The notes: a model not told the origin generated them from the sequence alone. A DNA stretch of 64,000 bases from an uncultured Planctomycetales bacterium (GCA_964520655.1 CAZFNI010000002.1:128770-192769), one strand, 5' to 3'; shown: positions 1,093-54,200, numbered from the stretch's first letter. Numbers and translations are program-made.

Positions 1093-2208
1093 TCAATTTT
1101 GGACTATAAGTCTATTATCCACATATTCTATAATTCCATCGATATTTTCATCATCCGCGTAATTATAAACAATCCCCACACTGTATTTCGCTCTTGTGAC
1201 TGCAACATAAAACTTGCTCCGACTCGTTGGCGCTAATTCTGACCCATTATTCTTAATCCAATTCATAATAGGCTTTGTTGGATAAATCAAAACACGCTCA
1301 AAAGTGGATCCCTTGGAATTTCCATAATTAATAATGGCACATTGTTTTTTAGTACGTGTTTCTTTGATGCTGTCGCGCAACTGAACACAGCAAGAATACT
1401 CGGCGAAATAACTATCAATATCGTCCTCACGGACAAAAAAGACCCCATCGTGATTTGTAGAAATGTTCTGACCAGAATTTGTTGGCGCATGATCAGGAAA
1501 TATTTTGTTAGCAAAATCACATATTTTCTGATTGCTCCTGTAATTTATTGTCAAAGAGTCACGGTCGATCTCGAGATTCTTTTGAATCTTGCTATCATCA
1601 AAGAAATAAACAATTTGAGACTTCTTAAATTGCTTATTTTTTGAAGAATTGTTTGTTGAGTAAGTTCCCTGCCTCGGGTCTCCAACCAACACAATTCTGG
1701 ATGAAGAAGCAAAAAGTAATTTCAAAAGCTCCAAATCATACCCGGCTAAATCTTGGACTTCGTCTATAAAAATATATGGATAGATTCTCGTCAATCTATT
1801 AATGACGTCGCCATTATTTTGTTTATCGCATTTTAAAACGAACTTTGAAAGCTTGTCTGAATATATTCTATAATTATGATCAAAATAATATTTTTCTACT
1901 TCTGATTCCCTTGTAAATTTCTTTGACTGTCCACTTACGAGCGATAACCCATTTACTCGTCCTTCGAATATGCCACCTTGATATGGCCTAACGCCATGTT
2001 CTAATAGGAAAGAAAACCACGTCTGGATAGTGACATTCGCGGGTACACTACCGCTTTCAAAAATAAACTTCCCTCTGATCTCTTCCTCGTTCGCTTCGGT
2101 AAAAGTAGTAACAAGAACATTCTTATCCTTAACCTTCAAGGCCTCTTTTACCAAATAAGTTGTTTTGCCCGAACCTGCGGCGGCAATCACCAATTTATTC
2201 TTGCACAT
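1093..2208 (-). CDS. gajB: Gabija GajB-like UvrD/PcrA-type SF1 helicase (compact, 371 aa)
   Basis: Walker A AAAGSGKTT at the N-terminus, DExx box IFIDEVQDL, motif VI VAVTRAKYSV; overlaps the upstream OLD-family gene by 14 nt. Confidence 0.55.
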   Translation of the reverse strand: MCKNKLVIAAAGSGKTTYLVKEALKVKDKNVLVTTFTEANEEEIRGKFIFESGSVPANVTIQTWFSFLLEHGVRPYQGGIFEGRVNGLSLVSGQSKKFTRESEVEKYYFDHNYRIYSDKLSKFVLKCDKQNNGDVINRLTRIYPYIFIDEVQDLAGYDLELLKLLFASSSRIVLVGDPRQGTYSTNNSSKNKQFKKSQIVYFFDDSKIQKNLEIDRDSLTINYRSNQKICDFANKIFPDHAPTNSGQNISTNHDGVFFVREDDIDSYFAEYSCCVQLRDSIKETRTKKQCAIINYGNSKGSTFERVLIYPTKPIMNWIKNNGSELAPTSRSKFYVAVTRAKYSVGIVYNYADDENIDGIIEYVDNRLIVQN

Positions 2209-3850
2209 ACTCCCACTCTATTGCGTCTAAAATATACTGGGGTAATTTCACATCTTCGTTCGTATCAAATATTCTTAAAGCACAATCCGTTTTATTAGTC
2301 ACCATGTAATTGCTTATCGCGGACTGATCAGGATATTTTGTTTCATCAATATTTAAGGCACCTCTCAGGACAGCCAATTGTTCTTTATTAGCCTCGACTA
2401 TTTGAGGCTCTAAAGTCTTAAGGTCATTTCTTTGATCTGTACAAATTTTTATTGTTGGAGAATTTACATATTGCTGATATTTCTGTGTAACGTTTTTGTC
2501 AAAAGCCCCGTCATTGTCCGTCACAACTACTACGGGCTTTCTTATCTTTTCAGCAATTTCTAAGAATCTCAAAAATGATGTTCCCACAGAGATAACGTCC
2601 ACTTCATCTTCAATGGGTAAATTTCTTTTACTTTTTAAATATGCTTTTTGAACAATTAATTCATCTGAAGGCCCTTCAACAAGGATCGCTTTCCTGCATA
2701 AAATTAACCTCAACGTATCGTATCCGGCGAGTTTCTCGAAATACTGCTTCGTTTTCTCATCTAAATCCGTAATCCGAACTTCATTTCGTTTTAATGTCAC
2801 TCTGTCAAAATTAAGCAAAATTAAGCTCCCTAGCCCAAGTTTATTTGCCACAAAACTGCTATGCGTGGAAACCATAATTTGCTTTCCTTCATGTCCATCT
2901 TTGAGATGTTTAATCAATTTATTCAGTTTTGAATGAGATAGATGATTTTCTGGTTCCTCAAGCAACAAAATATTGGCTTCTTGTGATTTTTTGTGACTGA
3001 GGGCAAGCCTTGTCTTAACCAAGCACTGCTCCCCTCTACCCGCGTAATTAAAGGGAATTTCATCTAAATAGGTTGTTAAGCTTGTTTCCCAAGCTGTTTT
3101 TGTCGACACATCGACCGACAATTCTACTTTTTTATCAGATATCTGTTTTTGTTCTAACTCTTTATTTATTTCTTTTACAGCGGCGTCATCTGCGAAAGAA
3201 TCTTTTAGCCTTCTATGTGCCTGGGATATTTTTACTTTATGTTCGTCGGAAAGAAGATCACGAATAATGCGAGAAATATAAACATCTGATCCATTCTGAT
3301 AGCGACTATTGGAGGAATCAATTAGTGCGGATTTGAATGGTATCGTTCTTGGAGTCAACCTATCGTCACGGGCAAAAGAAGACCATGAAAAATCATAATA
3401 TTCTATAGGAAGCGAACTTATTTTGTCTCCGCCATCTACTAAGATTTTATATTCATTCTGATATTTTTCGTTGAAAAACATCTTGAATCGAACCCCACAT
3501 TCTTTTTCCTTTATGCTATTTCCGTTTCCTTCAAAAAGCGCCTTAATTGAATCATCTTCAATTTCAAAAAATAATTCGATCTGAATGTGCGGAGGTTGCA
3601 AGCGATTGCTAGTCGCTAAACTATCTAAATAATTTCTTATAACTTTATTGTTGAACAAAGATTGTGTTAGTTCGGTACCCACATATTTGCCATAAATCCA
3701 GCCGGAAAGAGCCAAATGGATCGCTTCCAAAATAGTAGATTTACCCGCTTCATTATCGCCAACTAAAATATTAAGATGCTTGTTAAGCTCTAGACAGAAT
3801 TTGCCTTCAAAGCATTTAAAATTTTCGATAATAATTTTCTTTATGTGCAT
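2195..3850 (-). CDS. gajA: Gabija GajA-like OLD-family ATPase with C-terminal Toprim nuclease domain
   Basis: N-terminal ABC/AAA ATPase typical of OLD family (IIIENFKCF...LVGDNEAGKST); C-terminal Toprim motifs ILVEGPSDE and VVVTDNDG; a class-2 OLD gene immediately followed by a UvrD-like helicase is the Gabija architecture. Confidence 0.6.
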   Translation of the reverse strand: MHIKKIIIENFKCFEGKFCLELNKHLNILVGDNEAGKSTILEAIHLALSGWIYGKYVGTELTQSLFNNKVIRNYLDSLATSNRLQPPHIQIELFFEIEDDSIKALFEGNGNSIKEKECGVRFKMFFNEKYQNEYKILVDGGDKISSLPIEYYDFSWSSFARDDRLTPRTIPFKSALIDSSNSRYQNGSDVYISRIIRDLLSDEHKVKISQAHRRLKDSFADDAAVKEINKELEQKQISDKKVELSVDVSTKTAWETSLTTYLDEIPFNYAGRGEQCLVKTRLALSHKKSQEANILLLEEPENHLSHSKLNKLIKHLKDGHEGKQIMVSTHSSFVANKLGLGSLILLNFDRVTLKRNEVRITDLDEKTKQYFEKLAGYDTLRLILCRKAILVEGPSDELIVQKAYLKSKRNLPIEDEVDVISVGTSFLRFLEIAEKIRKPVVVVTDNDGAFDKNVTQKYQQYVNSPTIKICTDQRNDLKTLEPQIVEANKEQLAVLRGALNIDETKYPDQSAISNYMVTNKTDCALRIFDTNEDVKLPQYILDAIEWEYVQE

Positions 3851-3985: not shown

Positions 3986-4261
3986 ATGAAATACCGACAA
4001 TGGACCAGCAAACAAAAATCACAGATCGTACTTGAGGGCCTCTCCGGACAGATCGACATCACCAAACTATGCCAGAAATACCAAGTCTCGCAAGCGCAGT
4101 ATTACAAATGGCGCGACGCTTTCCTGGTCAACTGCCACCAGTCCTTTGAAGTCAAAAAACAGTCACAAAAAGAACAATATCTGGAAGGCAAAGTTCAAAA
4201 ACTGACCAAGATTATCGGAGATCTGACCATTGAGTTAAAAAAAAGCGAATACGAGCTATGA
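3986..4261 (+). CDS. IS3-family transposase OrfA (HTH)
   Basis: 91 aa; MKYRQWTSKQKSQIV...YYKWRDAF is typical of IS3/IS911 OrfA; its TGA overlaps the ATG of orfB (ATGA). Confidence 0.85.
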   Translation: MKYRQWTSKQKSQIVLEGLSGQIDITKLCQKYQVSQAQYYKWRDAFLVNCHQSFEVKKQSQKEQYLEGKVQKLTKIIGDLTIELKKSEYEL

Positions 4262-5046
4262 AACGAACCCGCGCCCAATCAACCATACAAAGAGACCTGG
4301 AACTGCTGGCCGTCATCAATCCGATCAAAACCGACCATCCCCTCTGGGGGTATCGTCGTGTCTGGGCGTATTTAAAATACCGCCAGAATTATTCCGTCGC
4401 CATTAATCGCGTGTATCGTATTATGAAAGAGCATCAAATGATCGTCACCAAACTTCAACGGTTACGCGCTCGACGCGGCCCCATGCGCTCAAAGCCACGA
4501 TCACATCAGCCCAACCACTTTTGGGGTATCGACATGACCAAGATAAAAATCTATCCCTGGGGCTGGCTGTATCTGTGTATCGTTCTCGATTGGTGCACCA
4601 AAGAAATCGTTGGTTATTCGTTAAGCATTCAGTCCAAAACCGATGACTGGTTATCAGCCGTTGAAATGGCCGTCAATAACCGATTCCCTAACGGCATCAA
4701 ATCCGATTTAAAAAAACAGTTGTTCTTGATCTCAGATAACGGCTGTCAGCCGACATCCCAGCGGTTCATGATGAACTGTTCGCTTTTGGGCATCAAACAA
4801 ATCTTTACAACTTGGTCTAATCCCAAAGGCAATTCCGACACCGAACGCGTCATGCGAACACTCAAAGAGGACCTGGTCTGGACCTATGACTGGGATAATC
4901 CCTTCGCCTTCAGCGAAGCCTTGAGAAACTGGATCGTCGCTTACAATACCGACTATCCCCATCAGTCCTTAAATAACATGACGCCGACGCAGTATTACGA
5001 ACAATTTAACAAAGAACCCGTTCTAACAAATTTTTCCCTTGCTTAA
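4258..5046 (+). CDS. IS3-family transposase OrfB (DDE integrase core)
   Basis: 262 aa; rve-type integrase catalytic core (WGIDMTKI..., LISDNGCQPTS, ...E). Confidence 0.85.
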   Translation: MKRTRAQSTIQRDLELLAVINPIKTDHPLWGYRRVWAYLKYRQNYSVAINRVYRIMKEHQMIVTKLQRLRARRGPMRSKPRSHQPNHFWGIDMTKIKIYPWGWLYLCIVLDWCTKEIVGYSLSIQSKTDDWLSAVEMAVNNRFPNGIKSDLKKQLFLISDNGCQPTSQRFMMNCSLLGIKQIFTTWSNPKGNSDTERVMRTLKEDLVWTYDWDNPFAFSEALRNWIVAYNTDYPHQSLNNMTPTQYYEQFNKEPVLTNFSLA

Positions 5047-10636: not shown

Positions 10637-11353
10637 TTATTCCATTTTTCCTTCATCAGCAAAACTGAAAAAATTATCACCGCCGATAATAATATGATCC
10701 TGCACTTTTATTTCCATTAGCTTCCCAGCATCACAGAGTTCTTTGGTAAATTTCTTATCTTGGGCGCTAGGCGCAGTTTCTCCGCTGGGATGGTTATGAA
10801 CACAAACGATTGATTTGGCGAATTTCTGTAAAGCGGTGTGAATTATTTCGCGGATAATTGGAAAGGCATGATCGACCGTTCCAACAGCGGCATCGGAAAT
10901 ATCTATGATTCGATTATTGTTATCAAGATAGACAACCTTAAAGACTTCGGTCTTAAGGTCGCGCATGTGGGGCAAAACGATGTCAACAATGTCTTTGGCG
11001 GAAGCGATTTTCTGCTTGCCCGGCGACACAACATCCTGCTGATAGCGCCGCCCGATCTCAAGCGCGGCCTGAATGTGGGCAATCTTAGCACCACCTAAAC
11101 CTTTGAATTCCTTCCAATCGCGGGTGTCGGTATGGGCCATGCTCCTGAAGGAGCCGAATTTACTCAGGATTTTGCGGGAAAGCTCCACGGCGCTGGTTCC
11201 GGCCGTGCCGGTGCGCAACAAAATAGCCAAGAGTTCTGAATTGCTTAAAGCACCCGCGCCTTTCTTGAGCAATTTCTCTCTTGGCCTGTCATCCAGCGGC
11301 CATGATTTGATGCCTGATAATTTTAAATTTTTCGTCACGTTTTCTGAACCCAA
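10637..11353 (-). CDS. radC: RadC-like JAB/MPN domain protein (UPF0758)
   Basis: LSNSELLAILLRTGT... helix-hairpin-helix region and JAMM motif HNHPSG; 3 nt after the hsdR stop. Confidence 0.8.
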   Translation of the reverse strand: MGSENVTKNLKLSGIKSWPLDDRPREKLLKKGAGALSNSELLAILLRTGTAGTSAVELSRKILSKFGSFRSMAHTDTRDWKEFKGLGGAKIAHIQAALEIGRRYQQDVVSPGKQKIASAKDIVDIVLPHMRDLKTEVFKVVYLDNNNRIIDISDAAVGTVDHAFPIIREIIHTALQKFAKSIVCVHNHPSGETAPSAQDKKFTKELCDAGKLMEIKVQDHIIIGGDNFFSFADEGKME

Positions 11354-11470
11354 TTCTTCCTAAAAAAGCGTCTGTTTTAATTCTGTGATAGCTACCCACC
11401 CCTCACTCGTATTAAAAATCTTATAACCTACATAACTCCAAATATTTATACTGAAATAACATCATCATTT

Positions 11471-11502
11471 TTGTCACAAAAAGCATATACTTTTTGTGAC
11501 AA
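11471..11502. promoter_or_regulatory. Perfect palindrome TTGTCACAAAAAG-CATATA-CTTTTTGTGACAA (13-bp arms); candidate operator/terminator at the distal boundary of the AbiE cassette
   Basis: Seen directly. Lies 14 bp past the phosphoesterase stop and ~120 bp upstream of the radC start. A near-identical palindrome sits at 13699-13728 on the other side of the cassette. Confidence 0.4.
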
Positions 11503-11515
11503 GATTTGGCACCAT

Positions 11516-12052
11516 CTAGTTAACCTTACCCTGCTTTTCTTCCTTCAGAAAATCAGAAATAGCAGAGGTGATCTGTTTAAAAGCGATCGGATAAAAATCC
11601 CAAACATCAACAGACAGATTGACAATCAAAGATTTTTTATCCAGCCGTTTCACCTTGTAATGCTGATGCACATGGCCGCAGAAATTCCAAGGCACCGATA
11701 GATCAGCATCTTCCGGCTTATGAATCATACAAATATCTTTAGCGCCATAATGGATATACATCTTTGTTATGATCGCATTGAGACTGTTGTTACGGTCATG
11801 ATTACCTTTAATGAATATGAACTTGCCGTTTAGCCTCTTTTCAAAGTTCAGGGCTCTCTGCTCTCCGCCTTCTTTTCCGCCTTTAAAAATAAAATCACCC
11901 AGAAAAAACACAGTATCCTCAGACTTAACCCGCTCATTGTGTTTGCGGATAATCGTTTCATTCATTTCCTCAACCGTTGCGAAAGGCCTGCCGCAATAGC
12001 GAATTATATTGAAATGTGAAAAATGATAATCGGATGCCCACCAACAATTCAT
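11516..12052 (-). CDS. Small calcineurin-like metallophosphoesterase
   Basis: 178 aa with phosphoesterase motifs SDYHFSH, LGDFIFKGG and GNHD; 3 nt after the AbiEii stop, same strand. Confidence 0.65.
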   Translation of the reverse strand: MNCWWASDYHFSHFNIIRYCGRPFATVEEMNETIIRKHNERVKSEDTVFFLGDFIFKGGKEGGEQRALNFEKRLNGKFIFIKGNHDRNNSLNAIITKMYIHYGAKDICMIHKPEDADLSVPWNFCGHVHQHYKVKRLDKKSLIVNLSVDVWDFYPIAFKQITSAISDFLKEEKQGKVN

Positions 12053-12054
12053 GA

Positions 12055-13128
12055 TCAGATCCTGTTAATTTTTTCTTCAATGATCCTCAGTTCTTCTATA
12101 ATGCGCTCAAATGATGGCGGCTCCTCAAAAAACATTTGTTGCATCTGACGGTAATCATTCTTTAATTGGCTCATTTGATCATCGCGAGGCAATAACCGCA
12201 AACCTCCCGGCTTTGCAGTGTCATAATGCGCCCAGTTCGCTTTAAAAAATAAAGTTTTATGATCCGCAACAGACTTAAGCAATGAAATATTTTCCAAAGC
12301 GCGTTTATAAATAGGTGAATCCGCCAGCGCGTATATGTCGTAATAATGCCGCGACATCCGTAGTGGTACATTCTTCTCAGGCGGATAATGATAAATCATA
12401 TGCAAGATCGTTGCTTTCTCCCAGAAAGTCCGCTCTGCGGCTAAAACACGTACAGAAGCCCCTTCAATGGCCGTCTCACCTGAAACATTGGTGACATACG
12501 GAGAAATGGTCGCGGTTTCAACTGGCCAATGATCGGATCGTGCGCCGAATTCAATTTTGACCGATGATCGCACATAGCTTTCCGCATTACTCGTCATGGC
12601 ATGAGGGAAAATAAACAAAACTGTTTGTCCGTCCTCATCTTCTGAATCCACTTCAATCTTCCACTCCTCTTTGGCACCCAGAACCGCCGTAACCGCTTGC
12701 CTTAAAGCAGGAAGAATTGTTTGATCAATGCTCTTCTTACAAACCAGTTGTAATTTTTCAAGCCGTTTCTGATTCTCTTTATTGCTTTCTTCTTTATCCG
12801 GCTCAATCGCTTCGGACTTCAATAAAAAAGGCCTCTCTATTGAAATGTCAATGTCCTCTGAAAAACGTTTAATCACGTTATAGCATTTTGAAAGGGATGT
12901 CCCTCCTTTAAATGTCAAATGCTCGCCTATTTTTGGTAATGAAAAAAGGATTTTGAGTATCCAGCACACCCAGAAATCCTTTTCGACTAATTGCGGCATG
13001 ATATTTAAATTAGCCGCAGTCACTTCAAAATAAGCGCGTTTATCTTTGTGCGGTAATAATGCGAATTTATTCATAAACTTCTCATTCTTGTAATTGCCGA
13101 AATATCGTTCCAATCCATGCGGGGGCAT
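12055..13128 (-). CDS. abiEii: AbiEii/AbiGii-family nucleotidyltransferase toxin (DUF1814)
   Basis: FKGGTSLSKCY...RFSEDIDISI nucleotidyltransferase motif typical of AbiEii; overlaps the upstream AbiEi-like gene. Confidence 0.75.
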   Translation of the reverse strand: MPPHGLERYFGNYKNEKFMNKFALLPHKDKRAYFEVTAANLNIMPQLVEKDFWVCWILKILFSLPKIGEHLTFKGGTSLSKCYNVIKRFSEDIDISIERPFLLKSEAIEPDKEESNKENQKRLEKLQLVCKKSIDQTILPALRQAVTAVLGAKEEWKIEVDSEDEDGQTVLFIFPHAMTSNAESYVRSSVKIEFGARSDHWPVETATISPYVTNVSGETAIEGASVRVLAAERTFWEKATILHMIYHYPPEKNVPLRMSRHYYDIYALADSPIYKRALENISLLKSVADHKTLFFKANWAHYDTAKPGGLRLLPRDDQMSQLKNDYRQMQQMFFEEPPSFERIIEELRIIEEKINRI

Positions 13129-13681
13129 AACGAAGGTCAGCGATCAGCTCGCGCTTATCATCCTTGGTTAATCTCTTTCTAAGTATTTCAATTGTTTTAT
13201 CACTCACGTGATCTTTGCCTAAATACCGCAAGGCTTGAATAACTAAACCGCTAACATGCCCCGCGGTAGCCATATTCTTGGGTGTGGTTCTTTTTAAAAC
13301 AATTTGCTGATTTTTGATCTGCACCTTACGATTAGCGCCGTCTGTCAAAAAAATAATTCTTGCCGGTACCTGCTCGGTCAAGCCCAGCAGATTAGCGGCA
13401 TATGCTCCGGAAGGCTGAATTTTCAGATTATCCCTTCCTGCCAATGCTTGAGCAAGACGGTCATAATTCGCAGGCAGATCTCCCAAAACAGGATGTTTTT
13501 CTGGGTAGTCATACAAACCGCGAGCAAGTCGGCGAATTGTTCCAGAATCTGCCAAACGTTCCAAAGCTTTGGCCACGGCGGAGCGGTTTCCGAGGTCAAG
13601 AAAGTGAGTTGAGGTGAACACCCAACCCCTTCTTCTTCCATAAATTTTACTAACTACTCTATTATAAATGCTTTGCGTCAT
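13082..13681 (-). CDS. abiEi: AbiEi-like antitoxin / transcriptional regulator (type IV TA)
   Basis: 199 aa; N-terminal winged-HTH-like region (GWVFTSTHFLDLGNRSAVAKALERLADSGTIRRLARGLY) and the characteristic pairing with AbiEii. Confidence 0.7.
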   Translation of the reverse strand: MTQSIYNRVVSKIYGRRRGWVFTSTHFLDLGNRSAVAKALERLADSGTIRRLARGLYDYPEKHPVLGDLPANYDRLAQALAGRDNLKIQPSGAYAANLLGLTEQVPARIIFLTDGANRKVQIKNQQIVLKRTTPKNMATAGHVSGLVIQALRYLGKDHVSDKTIEILRKRLTKDDKRELIADLRYAPAWIGTIFRQLQE

Positions 13682-13698
13682 TTATATCACCTCTTATT

Positions 13699-13728
13699 TG
13701 TCGCAAAAAGTATATAGTTTTTGCGACA
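13699..13728. promoter_or_regulatory. Palindrome TGTCGCAAAAA-N8-TTTTTGCGACA, 18-47 bp upstream of the abiEi start; candidate AbiEi autoregulatory operator
   Basis: Seen directly; consensus shared with 11471-11502: TGTC(A/G)CAAAAA...TTTTTG(T/C)GACA. Confidence 0.45.
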
Positions 13729-14117
13729 TACTGTCAAGCCATTTTTAGGAGAGGAATCGACGAAAATAACATTCTTTAATGTTCATTAAATAGTGAACAT
13801 TGGCACAAGCTGAACATTCGCAAGGGGCATTTCAATGGCGCAAAAAGTGGATAGTTTCTGTGGACACATTTATGTCAATTCATGTCACTCAAAAACAGCC
13901 TTTTTGACCACCGCAGGAGCATGTAGAATGCCTCTAAATACGCCTATTCTCCGTCCAGAAACGATTGTTTTTACCATTCTGAATAAGATTGCCACGGATG
14001 CCGATTTGAGTGACATTGACATCAATTTTTTGGGCCATAATCACTGACAACCTGCGCCTCGCCCGACCCGCATCCCCACACCCCCCCTGGAAGGACCCGT
14101 AAACAAAAAACCTATTT

Positions 14118-15248
14118 CTATTTATTGTTCCCTACCGGCCATAAAATATCATAATGAACACTGCGTCCCTTGCCGGACAATTGGCGCAATAACTTTTTCT
14201 CAAGCATGTCCGAAATCTCACGAAACGCGGTCGCCCTGCTAGTGCTTGCCAAGCTCACATATTTGCGGGTTGTTAATCCTCCGACAAATTCACCTTGCCC
14301 TTCATCCAACATACGGTTAAGGACTTTCTTTTGACGCTCATTAATCTCGGTCTGCGCATGTTGTGCCCAAAAATCCGCCTTGAGCAATACTTTACCAATA
14401 ATTTTATCAGACCTTTGAATAGTACGTTGATAGCACCCTAAGAACCAAAGAAGCCAGTTCGTCAAATCCAGATTGTCAGCCTTGGAACATTTTTCAAGAA
14501 TTTTATAATAACTGTCCCTTTCTTCCATGATCTGCGATGAGAAACTATAATATCGCACCTTAAGCTTTTCGTCCTGCGCCAAGGCCATATCTGTTAGACT
14601 CCGTGCAATGCGCCCATTACCATCTTCGAAAGGATGGATTGTCAAAAAATAAAAATGCGCTATCCCTGCACGCAAAAGTCCATCTGTGGTTGTGAAGCTC
14701 GCCTTCCACCATTGAAAGAATTTCCGCATTTCGGCTTCAACGGCTTCTCCCGGAGGCGCTTCAAAATGAACCCGTTCACGCCCCATAGGCCCAGACACAA
14801 CACGCATCGGCTCTTGGCCTCTCCATTGACCTACGCGAATCTTATGAAGTCCCGAGTAGCCTGTTGGAAAAAGCGCCCCATGCCAACCTTGTAATCGATC
14901 CCTATTAAGGGTCTTAGCGTAATTTTGAGTGGCATCCAGAATAATCTCAACGATGCCATCGACAGATCTGGATGATCGTCCTAGCCCAACTGTGGGAAGA
15001 CCCAAATGTCTTGCGACAGATGATCGCACCATTTGAAGATTAAGTAGTTCCCCCTCGATTTCCGATGTCTTAATGACTTCCTCAATTAAAATATCAGCTT
15101 GTGCCTCTTCTTCAAGCTTAAACCCCAATCGCTTAACGCGACCCAATAGATCACCCTGAGCAAGCCTCGCCTGTCCCAAAATCGACAAAAGGGTATTGCT
15201 GTCCCATGTGAATTCCGGCCAAGAATGATGTTGCCATATGTATTTCAT
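14118..15248 (-). CDS. Fic/DOC family protein (putative AMPylator)
   Basis: Canonical Fic motif HPFEDGNGRIARSL inside FYFLTIHPFEDGNGR. Confidence 0.85.
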   Translation of the reverse strand: MKYIWQHHSWPEFTWDSNTLLSILGQARLAQGDLLGRVKRLGFKLEEEAQADILIEEVIKTSEIEGELLNLQMVRSSVARHLGLPTVGLGRSSRSVDGIVEIILDATQNYAKTLNRDRLQGWHGALFPTGYSGLHKIRVGQWRGQEPMRVVSGPMGRERVHFEAPPGEAVEAEMRKFFQWWKASFTTTDGLLRAGIAHFYFLTIHPFEDGNGRIARSLTDMALAQDEKLKVRYYSFSSQIMEERDSYYKILEKCSKADNLDLTNWLLWFLGCYQRTIQRSDKIIGKVLLKADFWAQHAQTEINERQKKVLNRMLDEGQGEFVGGLTTRKYVSLASTSRATAFREISDMLEKKLLRQLSGKGRSVHYDILWPVGNNK

Positions 15249-45549: not shown

Positions 45550-47507
45550 GTCAACTGTCCTTGTAAGCCTTTAAGATCAGAGATCGGCAGTCCGCACACA
45601 CCCTTCCTGCAAACGCTGACCTTAAAAGGTTGGTCCGTTGGTTTGATCTTAAGCACTAAGTTTGGTACATAGCATTTATACACCATTTTCCTGATCTGCA
45701 CAAGTTGTTGTGCGCTAACACCACCCGTTACTTGAACATCTACCGGGCCATCGCGCTGCATACTCATCGCTAAAAGAAAATACGTATACCCGTGAGGCGC
45801 TTTAACCAGGACAGGATAGAATCGCGTTTCTAATAAGCTTAATTTATCTCTGTATTCCTTTTTACCCGTTATAAAGAGCAATTTAGCAAAAACCATGGCT
45901 GCCATGGAATTTCCCGACGGCATGGCACCATCATAGATCTCGATCGGCCTGACGATCAACCCGGAATCTTCCTGTGTCATATAATATCCGCCGCGGCCGT
46001 CACTAAAACGGCGACAGCATTCCTCTACAAGATCCTCTGCTGTCTTAAGATACTTCTCCTGAGACGTTGCTTCATATAACATGATCAACCCATAAGAGAA
46101 ATAAACGTAATCATCCAGCATTCCGTTAATTCCTGATGCGTGAAGCAAAACGCCGTCCTTTAAATAATTCTGCAGAATATATTCCGCGCAATGTTGTGCC
46201 TGTTGAATGTATGCATCTTCTCCTAATGCTAGACCTCCCACACACAACGCCGCGATCATCAACCCGTTCCAGTCAGTCAGGATCTTGTCATCCAGATGCA
46301 GAGGCATGCGTTCTCGTCGGTATTCCAACAGCTTGCGGCGGGCAATATCCATCCGTTCCCCATCTGCAACAACGATATCTTTCGCAGAATACAGGATATT
46401 CACCGAAATAAACTCGCCATGCGGGTCATGGGCAACATTCCCATCAGGACTTACGCCATGATACATTTTAAACAGTTTGGCTTCGCTTTCGCCCAGGACC
46501 GCGGTGATCTCATGGTCAGCAAATACATAATATGCCCCCTCTTGCCCCTTACTGTCAGCATCATAGGCGCAATAAAATCCACCCTCAGGGTCTTTCATTT
46601 CAGCCAATACATAATCCATTGTGCGCCTGGCGATCTCTATCAATGCGCGATCTTGCGTCTTCTGGTAGCACTGGACATACGCAATGACAAGCAATGCCTG
46701 GTCATATAACATCTTCTCAAAATGCGGCACTTGCCATTCCTGGTCCGTTGCATAACGGTGAAAACCAGATGCCAGGTGGTCATGGATGCCCCGCTTCGCC
46801 ATCGTTGTCAATGTATGTTCAACCATGGGGAGTGTCGGACTTTCCTTGGAATCCATTGATAGCAGGAATGATAATGTGTGCCCCATGGGAAATTTAGGAG
46901 CATTGGAGAATCCGCCATGAACCGTATCATACTGTGCAGCTAACTTTTGAACGGCATCATCTAAGATAGAATAGTCGGTAGGTCCAGCATCAGTTTCTGC
47001 CGTCATCGACTGGCGCAGTATTGAAATAAGCTCATCTGAAGAAGAGAGTATACCCTCATGATCAGAGGTCCAGGCATTATGGATCGATAAAAGGACATCT
47101 TTAAATCCCGGAGAACCCCACTTGGCAGCAGGCGGGAAATATGTGCCCCCATAAAATGGTTTACCGTCAGGTTTAAGAAAAACAGACAGCGGCCACCCGC
47201 CTTGCCCTGCGATGGCCATGACCGCATTCATATAAATGTGATCGATGTCAGGACGTTCCTCACGGTCAACCTTGATGGCAACAAAATATTGATTGAGGAT
47301 ATCCGCGGTTGCCTGATCCTCAAAACTTTCATGTGCCATAACATGACACCAATGGCAGGTTGAATATCCGATAGAAAGGAAAATGGGCTTATGTTCTTTG
47401 GCGGCTTTCTGGAATGCCGCGTTCCCCCATGGGAACCAATGGACTGGATTTGTGGCGTGCTGTCTTAAATACGGACTGCGTTCAGCGGCTAAATGGTTAG
47501 TCACCAT
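45546..47507 (-). CDS. DUF255 thioredoxin-domain protein (YyaL/SPATA20-like; thioredoxin plus six-hairpin glycosidase-like domain)
   Basis: [39 protein letters not shown] signature. Confidence 0.8.
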
Positions 47508-50500
47508 TATGGAGAGTCAAACACTTCCAGGGTCTTTTTTATAGCTTCATCCCGGTCTACAGGGGGCAATTCATTTGTTTTATCAGATCTTTTATCAACG
47601 GTTACCGGGGACTGGGAAACAGGAGCCTGGATCTCCATTGAACTTACGGGAACAGTGACGGGAACCGGCTTCTCCATATTCGTCTTGGCCTGTTCCATGA
47701 ATTTTCGGGTTTGTTTAAAATCAGGCAAAATATCTTCCAGGTCTTTCAATTTATTATACGCGGCCTCATAATTCTCTTTCTTATACAACCCCATCGCTTC
47801 TTCATAGATCGCAGAGGCGCTTTCATTAAGCCGCTGCTCGATGGCTTTACGTTCATCTTCCAATTGCTTCTGATGTTCTTTGGCCTTTTTCGCTAGTTCT
47901 TCTTTTTTCTTATTCTCGATGATCTCTTGTTCTTTTTGTTTTTTCAATTCGATCTTACGCTGCTGCTCTTCCATCTTGGCTTTGGCAAGTTGATTCTTTC
48001 GATCCGCTTCCTGCTGCTTTCTTGCTTCTGCTTCCTGCTTTAGCTGATCCTTACGTTTCTCGATAAGTTCTCTCGCATGCTGATCTTCAAAATGCTTCTT
48101 TCTTTTATTAGAAAACTCTACCTGTTCCTGACGAGCTTTGTCATTATTCTGGACAGATTCTGCTTCATCCATCGAGATCGGTTTTACTGGTTTTGACTCT
48201 TCTACCTTGACCGGCTGTTCTTGCGCAGCAGGGGTAAGAGGTACACGCCGGAACATAAGTTCTTCATCTTCTTTTTCACGTTTGCGTTGTTCCCTTGCGC
48301 GTTCTTCATCTAATCGACGGTTCTCGCGTTCCTTAAGCCTTAAAGCTTCCATACGAATTTTTTCGCGCTGGCCGGATTCTTCGGCATACCTGCGCTGCCG
48401 CTCAAATTGAGCGTTCAATTCGACCTGACGGGCACGCTCCTTTTGTGCCAATGCGTTCGCCATCTTTTGTTTTCGGATCTGCTCGGCAATAAACAGGCTC
48501 CGTTCACGTTCATGGGCAGCACTGGCCCTGGCTGTCACTTTTTCATAATATCGTTCGATCTTGATCGAATACGCCTTCGCGGCTTTATACCCGTGATTAC
48601 TCAGATCATCAAAGATGACCTTTGCCGCCGTATATTTCTTAGCCTTATATAAAGCGATCGCGTGATCAAAGACTTCATCTTTGGAACGTTCTATTTCCAC
48701 CTGCTCATAATCCTGCCTTTCGCGCTTGGCTTTTTCGGCAGCAAGACGTTCAGCACGCTTTAACTTTTCTTGCTGTGCTTCCTCAAGAAGCATGGCCTTT
48801 GCCTGAGCCTGACGCTCCTTGCGATCCTTAAGCAAAACCTCCCGTGGTGTCAGTTTTTTGTTTATCGTCTTACTGACAACAGGCGCCTTTGGCTCGATCG
48901 GTTTTTGCTCAACATCAGTTTTTTCTTTAAGTTTTTGTTCAGGTCTTTCTTTTGGTTTAGCTTTTTCCTGGGATTCTTTGTTATCTTCCTGAACGATCGT
49001 ACGTTTAAGCGCTTCTAGTGTTTCCAATAAACTCTCTAATTCGGAGAACTTTGCCTTGGCCAGATTAAAATCTTTAGCCTTGGAAGCCGCCAAGATCTCA
49101 TCGTTAAGATTGACGGCCTTATCTGCCAATGTTTGAATCTCCGATTCCTGGGCCTGTCGCAGTTGTCTCCTGCGTTCTTCTTCCGCTCGGCGTCTTTCCT
49201 CTTCAGCCGCTTTCACCAGGATAGCCTCATGCTGGCGTTTTGCTTCCAGCGCCTGCAAACGGTCCTCTTCTTTGATCGTTCTTTCCAGGACGGCCTGACG
49301 CTCGGCCTGTTTGGCATCTTCTTTAATATGCGCCAAATACCAGCGGGTCATTTTGTAATTTGGAGAATCTGTTTCGATCTGGAGGAAAGAAGTGTAGGCT
49401 TCTTCAAATTTCTGATTGCGTAAATGAATGATCGCTTCATCGTATTGATATTTGATCTGGGCCATACGCTGTTCGTGAGCGATCTTTTCCTGACGTTTGC
49501 GCTCACGTTCTTCATCTTCACGCAGCTGGCGCAGGATAGATTCTTTTTGCTGTTTAATGCGGTTAAGCATCTCATCGACCTTGGCCATTTTCTTTTTGAC
49601 CGGGGCCATGCGTTTATCTTCTGCCAACATGCTGATCTTCTGCAAGACCTGGGCAGAACGCTGGGCCAACGATTCAATGATCTTAGCCTCGTCGATCTCC
49701 TGCTCTTTTGTCAATACGGTTTTGGATGGTTCTTGGACAATTGGAGGGATTTCACTCTTTTTTTCTTCATTCTTTTTTACTTCAGGCTTTTGTTCCGGCT
49801 GTTTGGCCTGTTCAACCCTGACCGCCTCTTTTTTAACGCGCTGCGCTTCCCGATTTAGGATCTCTTCTTCTTTGGCCTTGCGCCTGGCTTCAGCTTCCTT
49901 GGCCAGCATATCCTGTTTTTGTTTACGGGCCTCCTCCTGTGCTTGCCGCTTCTTTTCCATCTCAGCTATCTGGGCCTGCTTTTGAATATCCTTTTCTTTA
50001 ATAAGAGCGATCTTGGCAATATACGCTTTTGTGGAGCGATAGCCCGGTAATGTTTTATCCACATCATTGAATTTTTCCAAAGACTCATCGTAAGTCTTTT
50101 TATCAAACAAGTTGACCGCGGCTTGGTATACAAAAGCGACCTGTTCCTCCAGCTGCTTGATACGCTGCTTTTCTTTCTCCTGGGCTTCCTTCTGTTCAAG
50201 GGCTTCTTTTTTACGTTTGGCTACTTCTTCTTCCCATTGCTGAAGGGCAAGTTCCTTGGCCTTGATCTGATCAACACGGGCTTGTTCTGCCGCCATATCT
50301 TTGTCTGCACGCGCGATGTAATTACGGGAAGCTTTATAATCCGGAACAACCCATTCCACCTCTTCAAACTTCTTTTTCGCTTCCATATACTTCTTGTTCT
50401 TGTATAAACTCACGGCTTCATTATAAACAGTGTCCGCCTGGGCATTGATCTGGTTCTTCCTGTCTTTTTCTTTCTGCTCGATCTCCTTATGCCAGGCTTC

Positions 50501-51283
50501 CTTTTCACGCTGACGGGCACGCTGGGCTTCCTCCTGCTGGCGGGCTTCTTCCTTTTGGTCCGCCTTGGAAAGAGCAACTTCCGTCTGAATGATGTTCTGG
50601 TCAATGATCCTCAAATAACTATTTGTTCCCTTATAGTTATCCGACAATTCCTGAACATGAGAGAACATCTCTTTGGCTTCTTTATATTTTTTCTCTTTAT
50701 AATAGGCAACAGCCTGTTCGTAGGCGCCTGCAGCATCGGAAAGCTTAACCTGCTTTTCCTGAATCTGCAGACGAACCTGCTGCTTCTCCTGTCTCTTGAT
50801 CGCGATTTCCTGGGCTTTTAATTTTTCCGCGCTTTGGTTGATGTATTTCGTCATTTCAGGATGTTCAGTGATATTGATGGCCTTTTCAAAATATTCGCGG
50901 GCCTGATCAAACTTCCCTTCATCCTGCAGCTCCATCCCTTTTTCGTAATATTCCCTGGCCCGCTCCTCACGTTTTTGATTGCGTTTGACAACCGACTGCT
51001 CTTTGATCTTATCGTTGACGCGTTTTATATTTTCGCGGGATTTGATGATGAGTTTTTTCAGATCGTAGACGTAACTGGAAGCCGCCTCAGATGTATCCTG
51101 GTCAGAGGCAGCAGCCTCCATGTCGCCGTCTTTGGCTGGCTTGGAGTGGTCTTCATTGACAACAGCAGCAGCGGAATCAACCGAAGGCTCATTATCAAGC
51201 CCAGTAGCGGGCTGACCGGCGAACGCCGGAGAAGCTATTAATAATAGGAAATAAAGAATAACATATGACATAATTTTTATCAT
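47507..51283 (-). CDS. 1258-aa secreted, highly charged coiled-coil protein with seven dispersed TPR-like helical-hairpin modules
   Basis: Start is an ATG whose complement lies at 51281-51283, overlapping the giant gene's TGA (ATGA). Signal peptide [22 protein letters not shown]. Seven repeats of Y.EA..L...KKY.EAK..F..V....P.YK......Y separated by KE/RE-rich linkers. Confidence 0.7.
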
Positions 51284-54200
51284 TCTAACACACCCTTTTG
51301 AGCATCGGCTACTATTTTCTCCCATAATTTTCTCGCCTTGACATATTCGCCCGTCACATAATAATCCTGCGCGGTCTTGTTGTATTCCTGCAATTTCTCC
51401 TCAAATGCGATCTTGCCTCGGATAAATTCGGAGGCCTCATCGAACATCATCTGGCCAGCGATGATGATATCTTTGTAGATCTGCTGGGACTCTTCAAACT
51501 TACTGGCTTTCTGAGCTGCTGAAGCAAGCACGAACATATGGTTTAAGTCGACAACCACCTTGCTGTCAGGTTTTTGCAATTCCCTCGATACCATGGCCCA
51601 TGCCCATTCAGCGACCTTATTATCCAGCCACTTTTCTTTAGCCCGCTGTTTCTCTTCCGGAGAACGATCGTAAAGTTTGCCGCTCATCCGCAAGAACGGC
51701 CCCTGAGAAGTATAATTCAGATTGGTCAGATCGTCGTTAAACTGGGTAAAGTTCCAACCCAACCCCAATTGCGCGTAATCGTTGATGTTACGGGTCGCCT
51801 CCATCAATAAGCCCTGCTTGCTGTCTTTCGCTTCGACCTGGGTCAGATTACGTAATTCGGTACTCAATGTCCAATCCCGATCAACCTTGTAATTGATGCG
51901 GTGGATCATGAGCCATGTGTGCGTGCGGTTGAATTCAAATCCAGTGACTTTCTCGTCGTTGATCCTGAACGCGAACTTTTCCGCCAACTGCCAGGCATCA
52001 TTGACATCATACACCCCCTCAACGCCGAACACCTGGGTACGGCTCTGGGCGACATCAGTCACTGCACCAGCAGATTGTCCGACAGGGCCGGCATTTTCTT
52101 TATAGGCATATTGACCGATCATATTCAAACGATCGAAATTAACAGGCCTGTAGGATGCTCCCAAGATAACCTGCTTATGCCGCTCTTCGATCGCGCTGGT
52201 GGTGACATTCTCCGTCTTGGAATATTCGAGCTTTGCCGAAACGGACATGTTGTCCGTGATTTTACCCTCTAACGCATTATAAAAAACATACTGTCGTTTA
52301 TTTTCATTGCCTTCATCGAAACGGAATTCCACTTTCGCTGAATCTTTCAAACGTTCCATGGCAAGCTCAGGATCTTTCCATACATACCCCGCTCCAAGGG
52401 CGATGGCCGTCCTGTCTGTCTTTGACCCGTCAAGGTTCTGTACTTTACCTTTTTCCAAACTACCCAAAAGAGCAAGCTTGTCATTGACATCTCCGGTCAA
52501 ACCAAAAATATTGGATTGTGATACAGCCCCGCTTTGGTCGCCGACAGCGCGCGTCAAGGATGCCTCAACCTTCCTGCCGTCCTGCTCTTTGGCCAAGGCG
52601 TATTTACTGTTAGACGTTGTTCCTGTCGGTGTGATACCAAATGAACGTTCGCTGACAGCCTGAAGGCGGTCATTGATCTTCGCCTGCTGAGAGACGGCGA
52701 TCGTTGTTGTTTTTCCACCCTGGGCATTGTCATCAACCTTGACGCTGGATGCCGTGGTCAGGTTATCATTAACCCGTTTGTTGGCCTCTACAGAAATAGA
52801 ATTGCTTGCGGTCGTTGACGTATTGGTCAGTCCTTGAAGTCCGATCGTACTGGTGGTGCCCTGGTTCATGCTGACCGCTGTTTTGATCGTTGTGTCTTTA
52901 TCGATCACGCCTGTAGTCGCCGCTACCGTCGCTGTCGTCACCGTCTGACCATTAGCCGCCGCGGATTTTCCAACCAGCGCATCAACAACTGTCTGCTCAT
53001 TGATCCGGGCACTTGTTCCGACCGTTCCGGAAGTTGTTTTTGTACCCGTTGAAGAGTCCGTCGAGGAAACGGATGCCGTGGCAGAGACCTTATCATTGAT
53101 ATCCTGCTTGGCGCCAAAGGTCGTCGTCTTGGCACTCTCTCCTGTAGCCAGCTGCGTCAGCGTATAGGCCGTTGATAACGCCAGCTTATCCGTGACATTC
53201 TGGGAAACGCCAAACGTTGTCGCTGTACCCGCTTTGCTAAACGCCTCCTGAGCAGAGATCTTCAAACGGTCCGTCACTCGTCCTTGAGCGCCGATCGTCG
53301 TGATATTATTATTCGCATTGCTGATATCAAACTGCTGGCCGGCGGTTAATGTGACCCTGCCGTTAAGCGCATATTCCGCCTTCCCTGCCAGCGACTTTGT
53401 GACCTGATTTGTCGTGGTGACCAGATCCCCGATCTTATTCTTGACCTCCTGGATCTGATATGCCCCGGTCAATTTCAGACGTTCGGACTCATGCACGACC
53501 TGGACAAGAGTGGTGCTTGTTTCGCTGGCACCGACCTGGGCCACGGTTTGTAAATTGGCATTATTGATGAGTTTCTGTATATCCGTGCGGGCTGTGACGC
53601 GTGTCAACGGAGTTAGATCAAAGGTCAACGCTAAACCGGCTAATTGTTTACCTTGCTGCGACGACGATTGCACTGAGGTGAACGAATCTTCGATCCACTT
53701 GTAATACGATGCAACACCCAATCGGTTAAAGAGTCTGGCATCTCCTTTGATGCCATACGCAACACCATTGGCCGCATCACCAGACTGCAGCTGCGTGAAT
53801 GAAATACCCCCATCAGTGGACACATAGGAACTGACACCTAAGGATTGCGTTTGGGCATACTCAGCTTTCACGGTCGCATCCGGTCCTAAATGCGCGGTCA
53901 CGTCCGTACCCTTCATTTCAAAATTCTTATTGGTCTGCGTTTCTTTTACATATGTCCCGCCAATGACCACATTGTCGCCCACGGCTTGCGCGACACGCGC
54001 ACCTTCAGAAGATTCCGTTAACTTGTCCTGCACATAATATTCATAATCCGCGACCACGTAGATCGGATTGCCGTCGATCAGATCGGTTGAAACGATCGAT
54101 TCTGATTTCGCGATCATGGAAACCGGCTGCCAGAACAGGATACGCCCCTGTCCCTCGTCTAATTCATAGTCCGCCCCGTTCTTCATCTCTTTGGAAGACA

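Follow-up and report, generated by a model that had tools for sequence, protein, structure and literature searches.

An AbiE toxin-antitoxin module joined to a phage-type metallophosphoesterase gene, with a predicted AbiEi operator at its promoter and a likely orphan operator beyond it

The 64,000-nucleotide stretch CAZFNI010000002.1:128770-192769 from an uncultured Planctomycetales bacterium (GCA_964520655.1; hereafter the window, with coordinates counted from its first letter) carries an abiEi-abiEii toxin-antitoxin (TA) pair of the AbiE family. The pair is followed directly by a gene for a small metallophosphoesterase (MPE), and two related palindromes lie at the promoter (P2) and past the MPE gene (P1). 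We consider it reasonably probable that this is an autonomous AbiE module, autorepressed via P2, which has docked before a phage-type MPE gene lacking its own promoter, and that P1 is an orphan operator. The features on which the argument depends are as follows.

13709..13737, minus strand: abiE promoter, with -35 TTGACA (13737-13732), a 17-nt spacer and -10 TATACT (13714-13709)
13698..13729, no strand assigned: P2, predicted AbiEi operator of the 'GC' subtype, which fills the spacer and covers the -10
13695-13688, minus strand: abiEi ribosome-binding site AAGAGGTG
13082..13681, minus strand: abiEi, 199 aa, DUF6088-type AbiEi, predicted antitoxin and autorepressor
12055..13128, minus strand: abiEii, 357-aa open reading frame (ORF) for a DUF1814 nucleotidyltransferase toxin; likely start M19 at 13074, giving 339 aa
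within the 3' end of abiEii, minus strand: conserved MPE ribosome-binding-site region AACAGGATC
11516..12052, minus strand: MPE gene, 178 aa, aq_1665/YfcE/Vps29-like
11471..11502, no strand assigned: P1, predicted orphan AbiEi-type operator of the 'AC' subtype, 13 nt past the MPE stop and 118 nt before a radC-like gene
12059..13774, minus strand: transferable AbiE unit (promoter/operator, abiEi and abiEii), the block common to AbiE loci without an MPE gene
12075..14118, minus strand: 2.04-kb segment missing from locus L001 (blastn)

Direct reading of the sequence and the ORF list place abiEi, abiEii and the MPE gene co-directionally on the minus strand. The abiEii stop codon TGA (12057-12055) and the MPE start codon ATG (12052-12050) are separated by 2 nt. 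The abiEi and abiEii frames overlap by 47 nt, or stand 7 nt apart if abiEii begins at M19. A scan for promoters and terminators picked out nothing of either kind between abiEii and the MPE gene. The arrangement of the sequence supports a compact three-gene transcription unit. Thus, the three-gene operon proposed in an earlier sequence-only reading of the window stands, with the last intergenic gap corrected from 3 to 2 nt and the genes assigned to the minus strand.

The identity of the two AbiE proteins is clear from profile searches. AbiEii matches PF08843 (DUF1814) at 1.2e-39 (137 bits, cutoff 22.5) and the PADLOC AbiEii profile at 6e-107, with the latter alignment running from residue 19. 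Because the PADLOC profile and many homologs align only from this residue, the abiEii start is probably M19 (13074). The nucleotidyltransferase motifs FKGG-T77-S78 and D92-I-D94 were read directly from the sequence. AbiEi matches the PADLOC AbiEi profile over its full length (1.6e-70) and Pfam DUF6088 (3e-47); it reaches 20 bits against Pfam AbiEi_4, below the cutoff of 25, and is far under the cutoff of NCBIfam TAA_AbiEi. The pair therefore has what defines an AbiE system: a DUF1814 toxin domain with hGG[ST] and DxD motifs and an upstream AbiEi-family antitoxin in a bicistronic operon. It resembles the known AbiE abortive-infection systems of Streptococcus agalactiae and Lactococcus (type IV, recently proposed as type VII) and the mycobacterial MenAT systems in being a bicistronic antitoxin-toxin pair, in the DUF1814 toxin with GG[ST] and DxD, in the AbiEi-family antitoxin and in the promoter-overlapping inverted repeat. 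In contrast to those systems, the antitoxin here belongs to the DUF6088 branch, below the Pfam AbiEi_4 threshold. The operon also differs from known AbiE in that a phosphoesterase gene is fused onto it in about 40% of close relatives.

For comparison, we assembled 80 genomic loci by means of the MPE profile and 59 metagenomic loci by means of AbiEii, giving 139 loci (numbered L001 onward). MPE relatives at 67-92% identity all come from metagenome-assembled genomes (MAGs) of Candidatus Omnitrophota or from MAGs labelled as Planctomycetes-Verrucomicrobia-Chlamydiae (PVC). On this basis, the window most likely stems from a Candidatus Omnitrophota genome. An exact look-up of the MPE in assemblies gave no match.

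The abiE promoter is sigma-70-like, matches 11 of the 12 consensus positions and was the best site between 10.5 and 14.3 kb in the promoter scan. P2 reads TGTCGCAAAAA-GTATATAG-TTTTTGCGACA at 13699-13728, with 11-bp arms around an N8 centre. A degenerate pattern covering P1 and P2 occurs at exactly two sites in the 64 kb and at none in 100 dinucleotide-preserving shuffles, so that both palindromes described in the sequence-only reading are real and have no third match in the window. That reading had an upstream copy overlapping the expected abiEi promoter. With the genes on the minus strand, the copy nearest the promoter is P2: the overlap is correct for P2 (13698..13729), and P1 lies past the MPE gene.

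The dyad TGTCnnAAAAA-N8-TTTTTnnGACA is found 6-24 nt (mostly 17-20 nt) upstream of abiEi in about 50 of the 139 loci. In all intact abiEi loci displayed, a GCTTGAC(A/T) -35 is kept 2 nt upstream of the palindrome and an AGAGGTG ribosome-binding site follows. Arm positions 5 (A/G) and 6 (C/G) are variable; among 36 distinct operator sequences, they are dyad-symmetric in 36 and 33, respectively. The resulting subtypes GC, AC and AG largely track AbiEi protein clusters or clades. Given that the dyad recurs before abiEi in so many loci, with compensating changes between its arms, we take P2 to be the AbiEi operator, as the sequence-only reading had suggested for these palindromes; it looks like the site of a dimeric repressor. 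AbiEi and Rv2827c autoregulate via promoter-overlapping inverted repeats (PMC7319586), and by this precedent AbiEi would bind P2. The operator differs from that of known AbiE systems: it is a single dyad of 30-32 bp (11-13-bp arms and a 6-8-bp centre that holds the -10), in place of a pair of 23-bp repeats with 3 bp between them. The natural series of GC, AC and AG variants, matched to AbiEi clades, could be used for dissecting the DNA specificity of AbiEi.

In one locus (L116), two AbiEi-type operators (3275-3304 and 3401-3430) lie 126 nt apart upstream of a single abiEi. The distal operator is a hybrid that combines an AG arm on the left with an AC arm on the right. The double arrangement recalls the multi-repeat Rv2827c promoter.

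The third gene encodes an intact member of the calcineurin-like metallophosphoesterase superfamily. The protein matches Metallophos at 1e-6, and the DxH, GD, GNH[DE], H and GHxH motifs are all present (D8xH10, G52D53, G83NHD86, H111 and G126HxH129). D8, H10, D53, N84, H85, H111, H127 and H129 are invariant in 28 MPE homologs, and G126 is conserved in at least 90% of them. An AlphaFold2 model (predicted local distance difference test score 89.9, predicted template-modelling score 0.87) has the four-layer alpha/beta-beta/alpha fold. Foldseek placed it nearest to 1XM7 (aq_1665; 3e-10), Vps29 (1e-5) and MJ0936 (1S3L; 1e-4); SapH and LpxH are also among the nearest structures, and all belong to the compact phosphodiesterase branch. 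Profile matches were obtained to 1XM7 (3e-17) and to phrog_547 (1e-38). As judged from the model, the MPE is a compact phosphodiesterase-like protein of the YfcE/Vps29/aq_1665 type. It shares with aq_1665 (1XM7), YfcE/MJ0936/Vps29 and PHROG 547 all five metal-binding motifs and the compact domain of about 180 aa; no member of the aq_1665/YfcE/MJ0936/Vps29 branch has a known TA link, and aq_1665 has no assigned function.

Two other identities were rejected. A Ser/Thr phosphatase of the phosphoprotein phosphatase (PPP) type does not fit, since motif II reads LGDFIFKGG with no GDxxDRG, and the lambda phosphatase fold is remote (1G5B against the MPE model: E = 0.06, template-modelling score 0.40). 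The ligase-associated nuclease PdeM/MPE does not fit either: NCBIfam TIGR04123 gave 43 bits against a cutoff of 150, and PDB entry 6NVO ('Nuclease MPE') matches the window protein at only 1e-4 over residues 47-139.

MPE homologs at 45-56% identity sit in phage-like replication modules, and inspection of these for TA neighbours found none. In a phage collection, 849 records encode an MPE homolog; no functional annotation was obtained for these. At L018:5456-7607, a P-loop kinase (AAA_18/AAA_33), an MPE and an RNA ligase (PF21189 OB domain and PF09414) follow in tight succession, and this set looks like a split polynucleotide kinase-phosphatase-ligase RNA-repair set. L017:174-1866 has the kinase-MPE pair, and L022:1-600 has, as read from the sequence, a near-identical ligase start after the MPE gene. 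The trio hints at nucleic-acid end chemistry for the MPE. At L013:5181-5894, a gene for an ApaH/PrpE-like 237-aa metallophosphoesterase stands between an AbiEi_4-AbiEii pair and an MPE of the 178-aa type. Therefore, two different phosphoesterases follow one AbiE module in this locus.

The linkage between AbiE and the MPE was examined from both sides. On the AbiEii side, we used relatives 57-92% identical to the window protein in 51 loci with at least 600 nt of sequence past abiEii. The MPE gene follows abiEii directly in 21 of the 51 and is absent from 30, including the closest relative, L081 (92%). In MPE-less loci, abiEii is followed by genes for a MiaB-like radical SAM protein, phosphoglycerate kinase (PGK), asparagine synthase (AsnB), a methyltransferase, a low-molecular-weight (LMW) protein tyrosine phosphatase or PRiA4_ORF3, and no other downstream family recurs more than three times. 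The LMW phosphotyrosine phosphatase gene lies about 60 nt after abiEii in MPE-less L094:3288-3701, L096:2397-2804 and L097:1711-2118; chance could explain this, or the enzyme may be a further phosphatase partner. On the MPE side, the upstream neighbour in Omnitrophota is AbiEii in at least 10 loci. Other upstream neighbours are as follows.

Fic: L001, L009, L014, L032
AbiEi and RhuM: L015
AbiEi and DUF6577: L005
AAA_21 and RloB: L016
AAA_14/DUF4143: L030
P-loop kinase: L017, L018
Gp49/helix-turn-helix pair: L019
AbiEi_4-AbiEii and ApaH-like metallophosphoesterase: L013

The MPE proteins are 67-92% identical while these upstream neighbours differ. The gap between the upstream gene and the MPE gene is mostly 0-30 nt, or the genes overlap; in a few loci it is 70-105 nt. 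All 17 complete triads, and about 30 Omnitrophota loci overall, share a homologous AbiEii-MPE junction (ATTAACAGGATnnnnnATG). Some loci that now have a different gene before the MPE gene still retain stretches of the abiEii 3' end there (60 nt in L005, shorter in L013, L030 and L006). Because the junction is homologous and these remnants persist, AbiEii-MPE is an old arrangement in this lineage that was overwritten by later exchanges. Of the 31 MPE genes that follow AbiE, about 8 carry a truncation or a frameshift (L021, L026, L055, L100, L101, L126/127 and L136), and AbiE is mostly intact there. Thus, the search of other genomes that the sequence-only reading had called for shows a recurrent linkage of AbiEii with a small MPE, with a homologous junction in about 30 loci and three AbiE subfamilies involved. 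An MPE promoter of its own and a missing linkage to AbiEii, which would have spoken against its proposal, were not seen: there is no internal promoter and the linkage recurs, although it is optional.

The unit that is exchanged was delimited by blastn. Against MPE-less L081 (91%), homology runs from window position 13774 to 12059, and against MPE-less L082, L083, L088 and L106 (about 80%) from 13746/7 to 12064-12067. Since the match to MPE-less loci goes no further than the abiEii stop codon, the transferable unit consists of promoter/operator, abiEi and abiEii. The flanks were delimited in the same way. Their closest relative, L001, has Fic (89% protein identity) and the MPE (92%) with the MPE gene 13 nt after Fic, and no AbiE. 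The two matches (15448 to 14119 for Fic and 12074 to 11529 for the MPE) are contiguous in L001. Because Fic joins the MPE directly there, the window carries a 2.04-kb insertion relative to L001.

In other loci, the toxin has been exchanged behind a constant antitoxin. The DUF6088-type AbiEi with the same operator is paired with non-AbiEii toxins, namely a 246-aa Fic, RhuM/PDC-S05 or DUF6577, at L014:458-1834, L032:1527-2906, L015:4356-5979, L005:4404-5828 and L011:3578-5996.

The same architecture is seen in other phyla. MPE homologs 35-40% identical to the window protein are found in Chlamydiota, Verrucomicrobiota and Acidobacteriota. They share 65-95% identity with one another and are encoded by the last gene of discrete units. 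The preceding modules are listed below.

AbiEi_4 and AbiEii: L037, L049, L052, L058, L073
AbiEi_1 and AbiEii: L053
AbiEi_2-like gene: L041
Helix-turn-helix-peptidase M78 and PIN-like gene: L045, L050, L051, L054, L056
Helix-turn-helix-Panacea and 122-aa gene: L040, L043, L063
ATPase: L038, L044, L062, L076
RloB: L048
DUF1398: L039, L046

The tree of this distant MPE clade is intermixed with respect to the upstream module, and tyrosine integrases are nearby in several of the chlamydial loci. Three AbiE subfamilies (AbiEi_4, AbiEi_1 and DUF6088 types) stand directly before homologous MPEs in Verrucomicrobiota, Chlamydiota and Omnitrophota. From these lists of upstream partners, AbiE is the commonest partner of this MPE family and far from its sole one.

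We propose the following mechanism. AbiEi, a winged-helix antitoxin, would bind the P2 dyad over the -10 and repress its own operon. By homology, AbiEii, a DUF1814 nucleotidyltransferase, would block translation by extension of tRNA 3' ends, and AbiEi would neutralize it. The promoterless MPE gene would be read through from whichever operon precedes it. In Omnitrophota, the MPE would be the invariant last gene behind interchangeable TA and defence modules, most often AbiE but also Fic, RhuM, RloB, PIN, Panacea, ATPases and kinases, and the same would have arisen independently in Chlamydiota and Verrucomicrobiota. The modules would be swapped by recombination, with the right-hand breakpoint just upstream of the MPE ribosome-binding site. 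From its shared last-gene position behind swapped modules, the MPE would therefore be a preferred docking partner, co-expressed with AbiE and not an obligate part of it. P1 would be the remnant of a second AbiE module once situated between the MPE and radC genes, a position that is still so occupied in L017 and L018.

Prophage and satellite hotspots of the P2/P4 type have defence cargo flanked by conserved genes. Our loci resemble them in that interchangeable defence or TA cargo stands beside a conserved phage-related gene, the boundaries are sharp and conserved, earlier occupants have left scars and, in several chlamydial loci, an integrase is nearby. Unlike the genes of those hotspots, the MPE would depend on the promoter of its cargo, because it is co-oriented with the cargo's last gene and often overlaps it. 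AbiE, its operator logic and defence-island hotspots are already known. We found nothing in the searchable literature (AbiEii or DUF1814 with phosphoesterase) on recurrent fusion of a phosphoesterase to AbiE and to other TA operons. Even if the MPE is a docking gene only, the region is a precise cassette-exchange hotspot in which toxins are swapped between a constant AbiEi/operator and a constant MPE.

P1 reads TTGTCACAAAAAG-CATATA-CTTTTTGTGACAA at 11471-11502, with perfect 13-bp arms around an N6 centre. The arms (TTGTCACAAAAA...TTTTTGTGACAA) are identical to the AC-type operators of L102, L114 and L108, which belong to other AbiEi clades. P1 has neither the -35 nor the ribosome-binding site that flank every intact abiEi promoter; no second abiEi matching an AC-type operator was found in the window, and no abiEi remnants were found in the sequence past P1. 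That sequence is weakly similar to those that follow the L013 and L030 orphan operators, and all have a GTATAAATAT box equally far from the operator. Orphan operators are present upstream of non-AbiEi genes in L013, L030 and L059, and L030 retains half of a GC-type operator 40 nt further upstream of its orphan. The interval between the MPE and radC genes varies between loci, holding nothing, a 169-aa ORF, RhuM or an RNA ligase. Downstream of the MPE gene, L017, L018 and L074 have AbiEi or an entire AbiE module. Judged from these sequences, P1 is most likely an operator left from a former AbiE module between the MPE and radC genes. It may still bind an AbiEi protein or form a hairpin at the mRNA 3' end.

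Several observations weigh against the picture of a passively docked MPE gene with a relic operator behind it. The correlation of AbiEii-MPE divergence, calculated from pairwise identities in the 17 complete triads, is r = 0.66, compared with r = 0.69 for AbiEi-AbiEii; this co-divergence and the junction homologous in 17 of 17 triads fit a co-inherited functional unit. The tight or overlapping junctions with many upstream genes could mean that translational coupling is functionally needed. AbiE is by far the commonest partner, with three subfamilies in several phyla, and this exceeds what a passive docking site predicts. Finally, arms perfect over 13 bp are unexpected for a decaying relic.

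The main rival reading, which we regard as doubtful, makes the MPE a genuine third component of AbiE, as the sequence-only reading had proposed, and of other toxin modules. It would be an eraser that removes either an inhibitory phosphate from auto-phosphorylated AbiEii (reactivation) or the nucleotides added by AbiEii to tRNA 3' ends (detoxification). In its favour are the conserved homologous junction of 2 nt or an overlap in about 30 loci, the co-divergence, and the presence of the MPE in 21 of 51 close AbiEii relatives when other downstream families occur at most three times. Independent AbiE subfamilies also stand directly before homologous MPEs in three phyla, and the other frequent partners, Fic and P-loop kinases, transfer phosphate or nucleoside monophosphate groups as well. 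Recent work adds weight to the idea: auto-phosphorylation at T65, which AbiEi induces, silences AbiEii, a Ser/Thr phosphatase reactivates it in vitro, and the authors state that the cellular phosphatase for AbiE/MenT toxins is unknown (bioRxiv 10.64898/2026.01.19.700257). As read from the sequence, the window AbiEii has Thr/Ser right after the GG motif, a possible counterpart of S. agalactiae T65. The LMW phosphatase gene after abiEii in L094, L096 and L097 points the same way. However, the 30 MPE-less loci among 51, with the closest relative L081 among them, and the roughly 8 of 31 decayed MPE copies, mostly beside intact AbiE, are difficult to reconcile with a third component. The MPE also follows PIN, Panacea, RloB and ATPase modules that share no chemistry with AbiEii, lacks the GDxxDRG of PPP phosphatases, has phosphodiesterases as fold neighbours, and has its 45-56% identical relatives in phage replication modules.

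Toxin-antitoxin-chaperone (TAC) systems are tripartite TA systems with a promiscuous accessory gene. The MPE loci resemble TAC in that one conserved third gene stands behind several unrelated TA families in one operon. They differ from TAC in that the putative accessory gene encodes an enzyme of the phosphoesterase superfamily, not a chaperone, and is dispensable in many close relatives. In a bolder form, which we think unlikely, the MPE would be a promiscuous TA third component in PVC-group bacteria that resets AbiEii, either arming it by dephosphorylation or clipping the nucleotides that it adds to tRNA 3' ends, and P1, as a further AbiEi site, would tie radC and type I restriction into the circuit. 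If the MPE does act on the toxin or its product, the interest would be high, and AbiE-MPE would be a three-part switch. The AbiE-MPE fusion, found in dozens of loci with three AbiE subfamilies and in several phyla, provides a concrete, testable phosphatase candidate.

The remaining alternatives concern P1. It is possible, though improbable in our view, that P1 is a working distal operator and that the resident AbiEi binds P2 and P1 together, looping the 2.2-kb operon or acting as a roadblock or regulator at the head of radC-hsdRSM. The perfect arms, which differ from P2 by one symmetric A/G change per half-site, would agree with this, as would the position of P1, which lies 13 nt past the last gene and has a TATAAAT box about 19 nt further on; in L013 and L030, the orphan operators are followed by the same GTATAAATAT box equally far away. 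Multiple operators have parallels in L116, with its two copies 126 nt apart, and in Rv2827c, which uses multiple inverted repeats of graded affinities (PMC7319586). On the other hand, none of the other 138 loci has an operator after the MPE gene, the AC subtype belongs to an AbiEi clade other than that of the resident GC type, and the promoter scan found no promoter-like site at P1. Moreover, AbiEi and Rv2827c did not bind non-cognate repeats of each other (PMC7319586), and cross-recognition of P1 therefore cannot be assumed.

A role of P1 in RNA, as a 3' stem-loop terminating or stabilizing the abiEi-abiEii-MPE transcript, is quite improbable. P1 could form a 14-bp hairpin 13 nt past the stop codon, a 91-nt stretch across it folds at -22 kcal/mol (z = -3.7 against shuffles), and unrelated hairpins follow the MPE gene in other loci. 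However, an intrinsic terminator has a GC-rich stem and a U-tract, whereas P1 has 4 G-C among its 13 arm pairs and is followed by AAAAAUGAUG, with no U-tract; the terminator scan makes no call, and the sequence is that of an AbiEi-type operator rather than a generic hairpin. A classical terminator, one of the roles offered for this palindrome by the sequence-only reading, is thus not supported.

Another role offered there, the edge of a mobilizable cassette, fails on the homology boundaries, and the idea that P1 and P2 are recombination sites (Xer/dif-module or attC-like) that bracket and mobilize the three genes is essentially excluded by sequence comparison: near-identical palindromes (11-13-bp arms, 6-8-bp centre) do flank the genes in a cassette-swapping hotspot, but attC or Xer dif modules have sites at both ends that coincide with the module boundaries, and here the blocks shared with other genomes reach about 10-45 bp beyond P2 on one side and the abiEii stop on the other, where 560 bp still separate them from P1; the MPE gene and P1 are left out. 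P1 is alone among the 139 loci (0 of 138 others have a palindrome on the MPE side), P2 is always fixed at the promoter with the -10 in its centre, and no site-specific recombinase gene was found among the neighbours in a scan that left out the ORFs at 3986-5046.

Other features of the window are as follows.

10637..11353, minus strand: radC-like JAB gene, which heads a conserved block downstream of the MPE gene
10634-5064: type I restriction-modification genes hsdR/S/M, after radC
3986-5046: insertion-sequence-like ORFs, between the Gabija and type I restriction-modification genes
2195-3850: Gabija GajA (1e-206)
1093-2208: Gabija GajB (1e-131)
14118-15248: SoFic-like Fic protein gene, upstream of AbiE
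13779..13800, no strand assigned: ATGTTCA-N8-TGAACAT, second conserved palindrome, within the leader that precedes the abiE promoter
13835..13862, no strand assigned: P3, degenerate palindrome-like copy TGGCGCAAAAAGTGGATAGTTTCTGTG, 84% identical to P2 over 25 nt

Because a complete Gabija system adjoins insertion-sequence-like ORFs and type I restriction-modification genes, we regard the first 16 kb of the window as a defence island. RadC also follows the MPE in L007, L008, L012, L015 and L023, and HsdR is 85% identical in L023.

The second palindrome belongs to a family, ATGTTCAC-N6-GTGAACAT, whose members precede the AbiEi operator by 60-100 nt and are present in at least 14 related loci (L007, L008, L009, L011-L014, L026, L030, L059, L090, L101, L114 and L116). 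A ATGTCCAC-N6-GTGGACAT element often accompanies it, about 60 nt farther from the operator, and the window leader also has a third GAACATT half-site. The factor that binds this palindrome could be a regulator common to the whole hotspot. P3 was considered as a third AbiEi operator and rejected: it is degenerate, occupies the site of the ATGTCCAC-N6-GTGGACAT family in other loci and is probably not an operator. A leader of about 200 nt between Fic and the abiE promoter (13866-14082) is 74-79% conserved in L059 and L003 and partly in L015; it contains no ORF of at least 50 aa on the gene strand and has no Rfam match. An Rfam scan of 11300-14200 gave sub-threshold chance matches only.

In chlamydial and verrucomicrobial loci, another palindrome, CTGTTCAA-N6-TTGAACAG, lies 66-216 nt past the MPE stop (L038:4982, L040:6723, L044:6594, L049:6565, L052:6119 and L068:3766). 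In L049 and L052 it is just upstream of a tyrosine integrase gene, and its role may be that of an operator or of a site related to attachment of the MPE-carrying element. Far from the AbiE region, the window carries two adjacent, very large minus-strand ORFs of 1272 aa and 3330 aa at 47507-61272.

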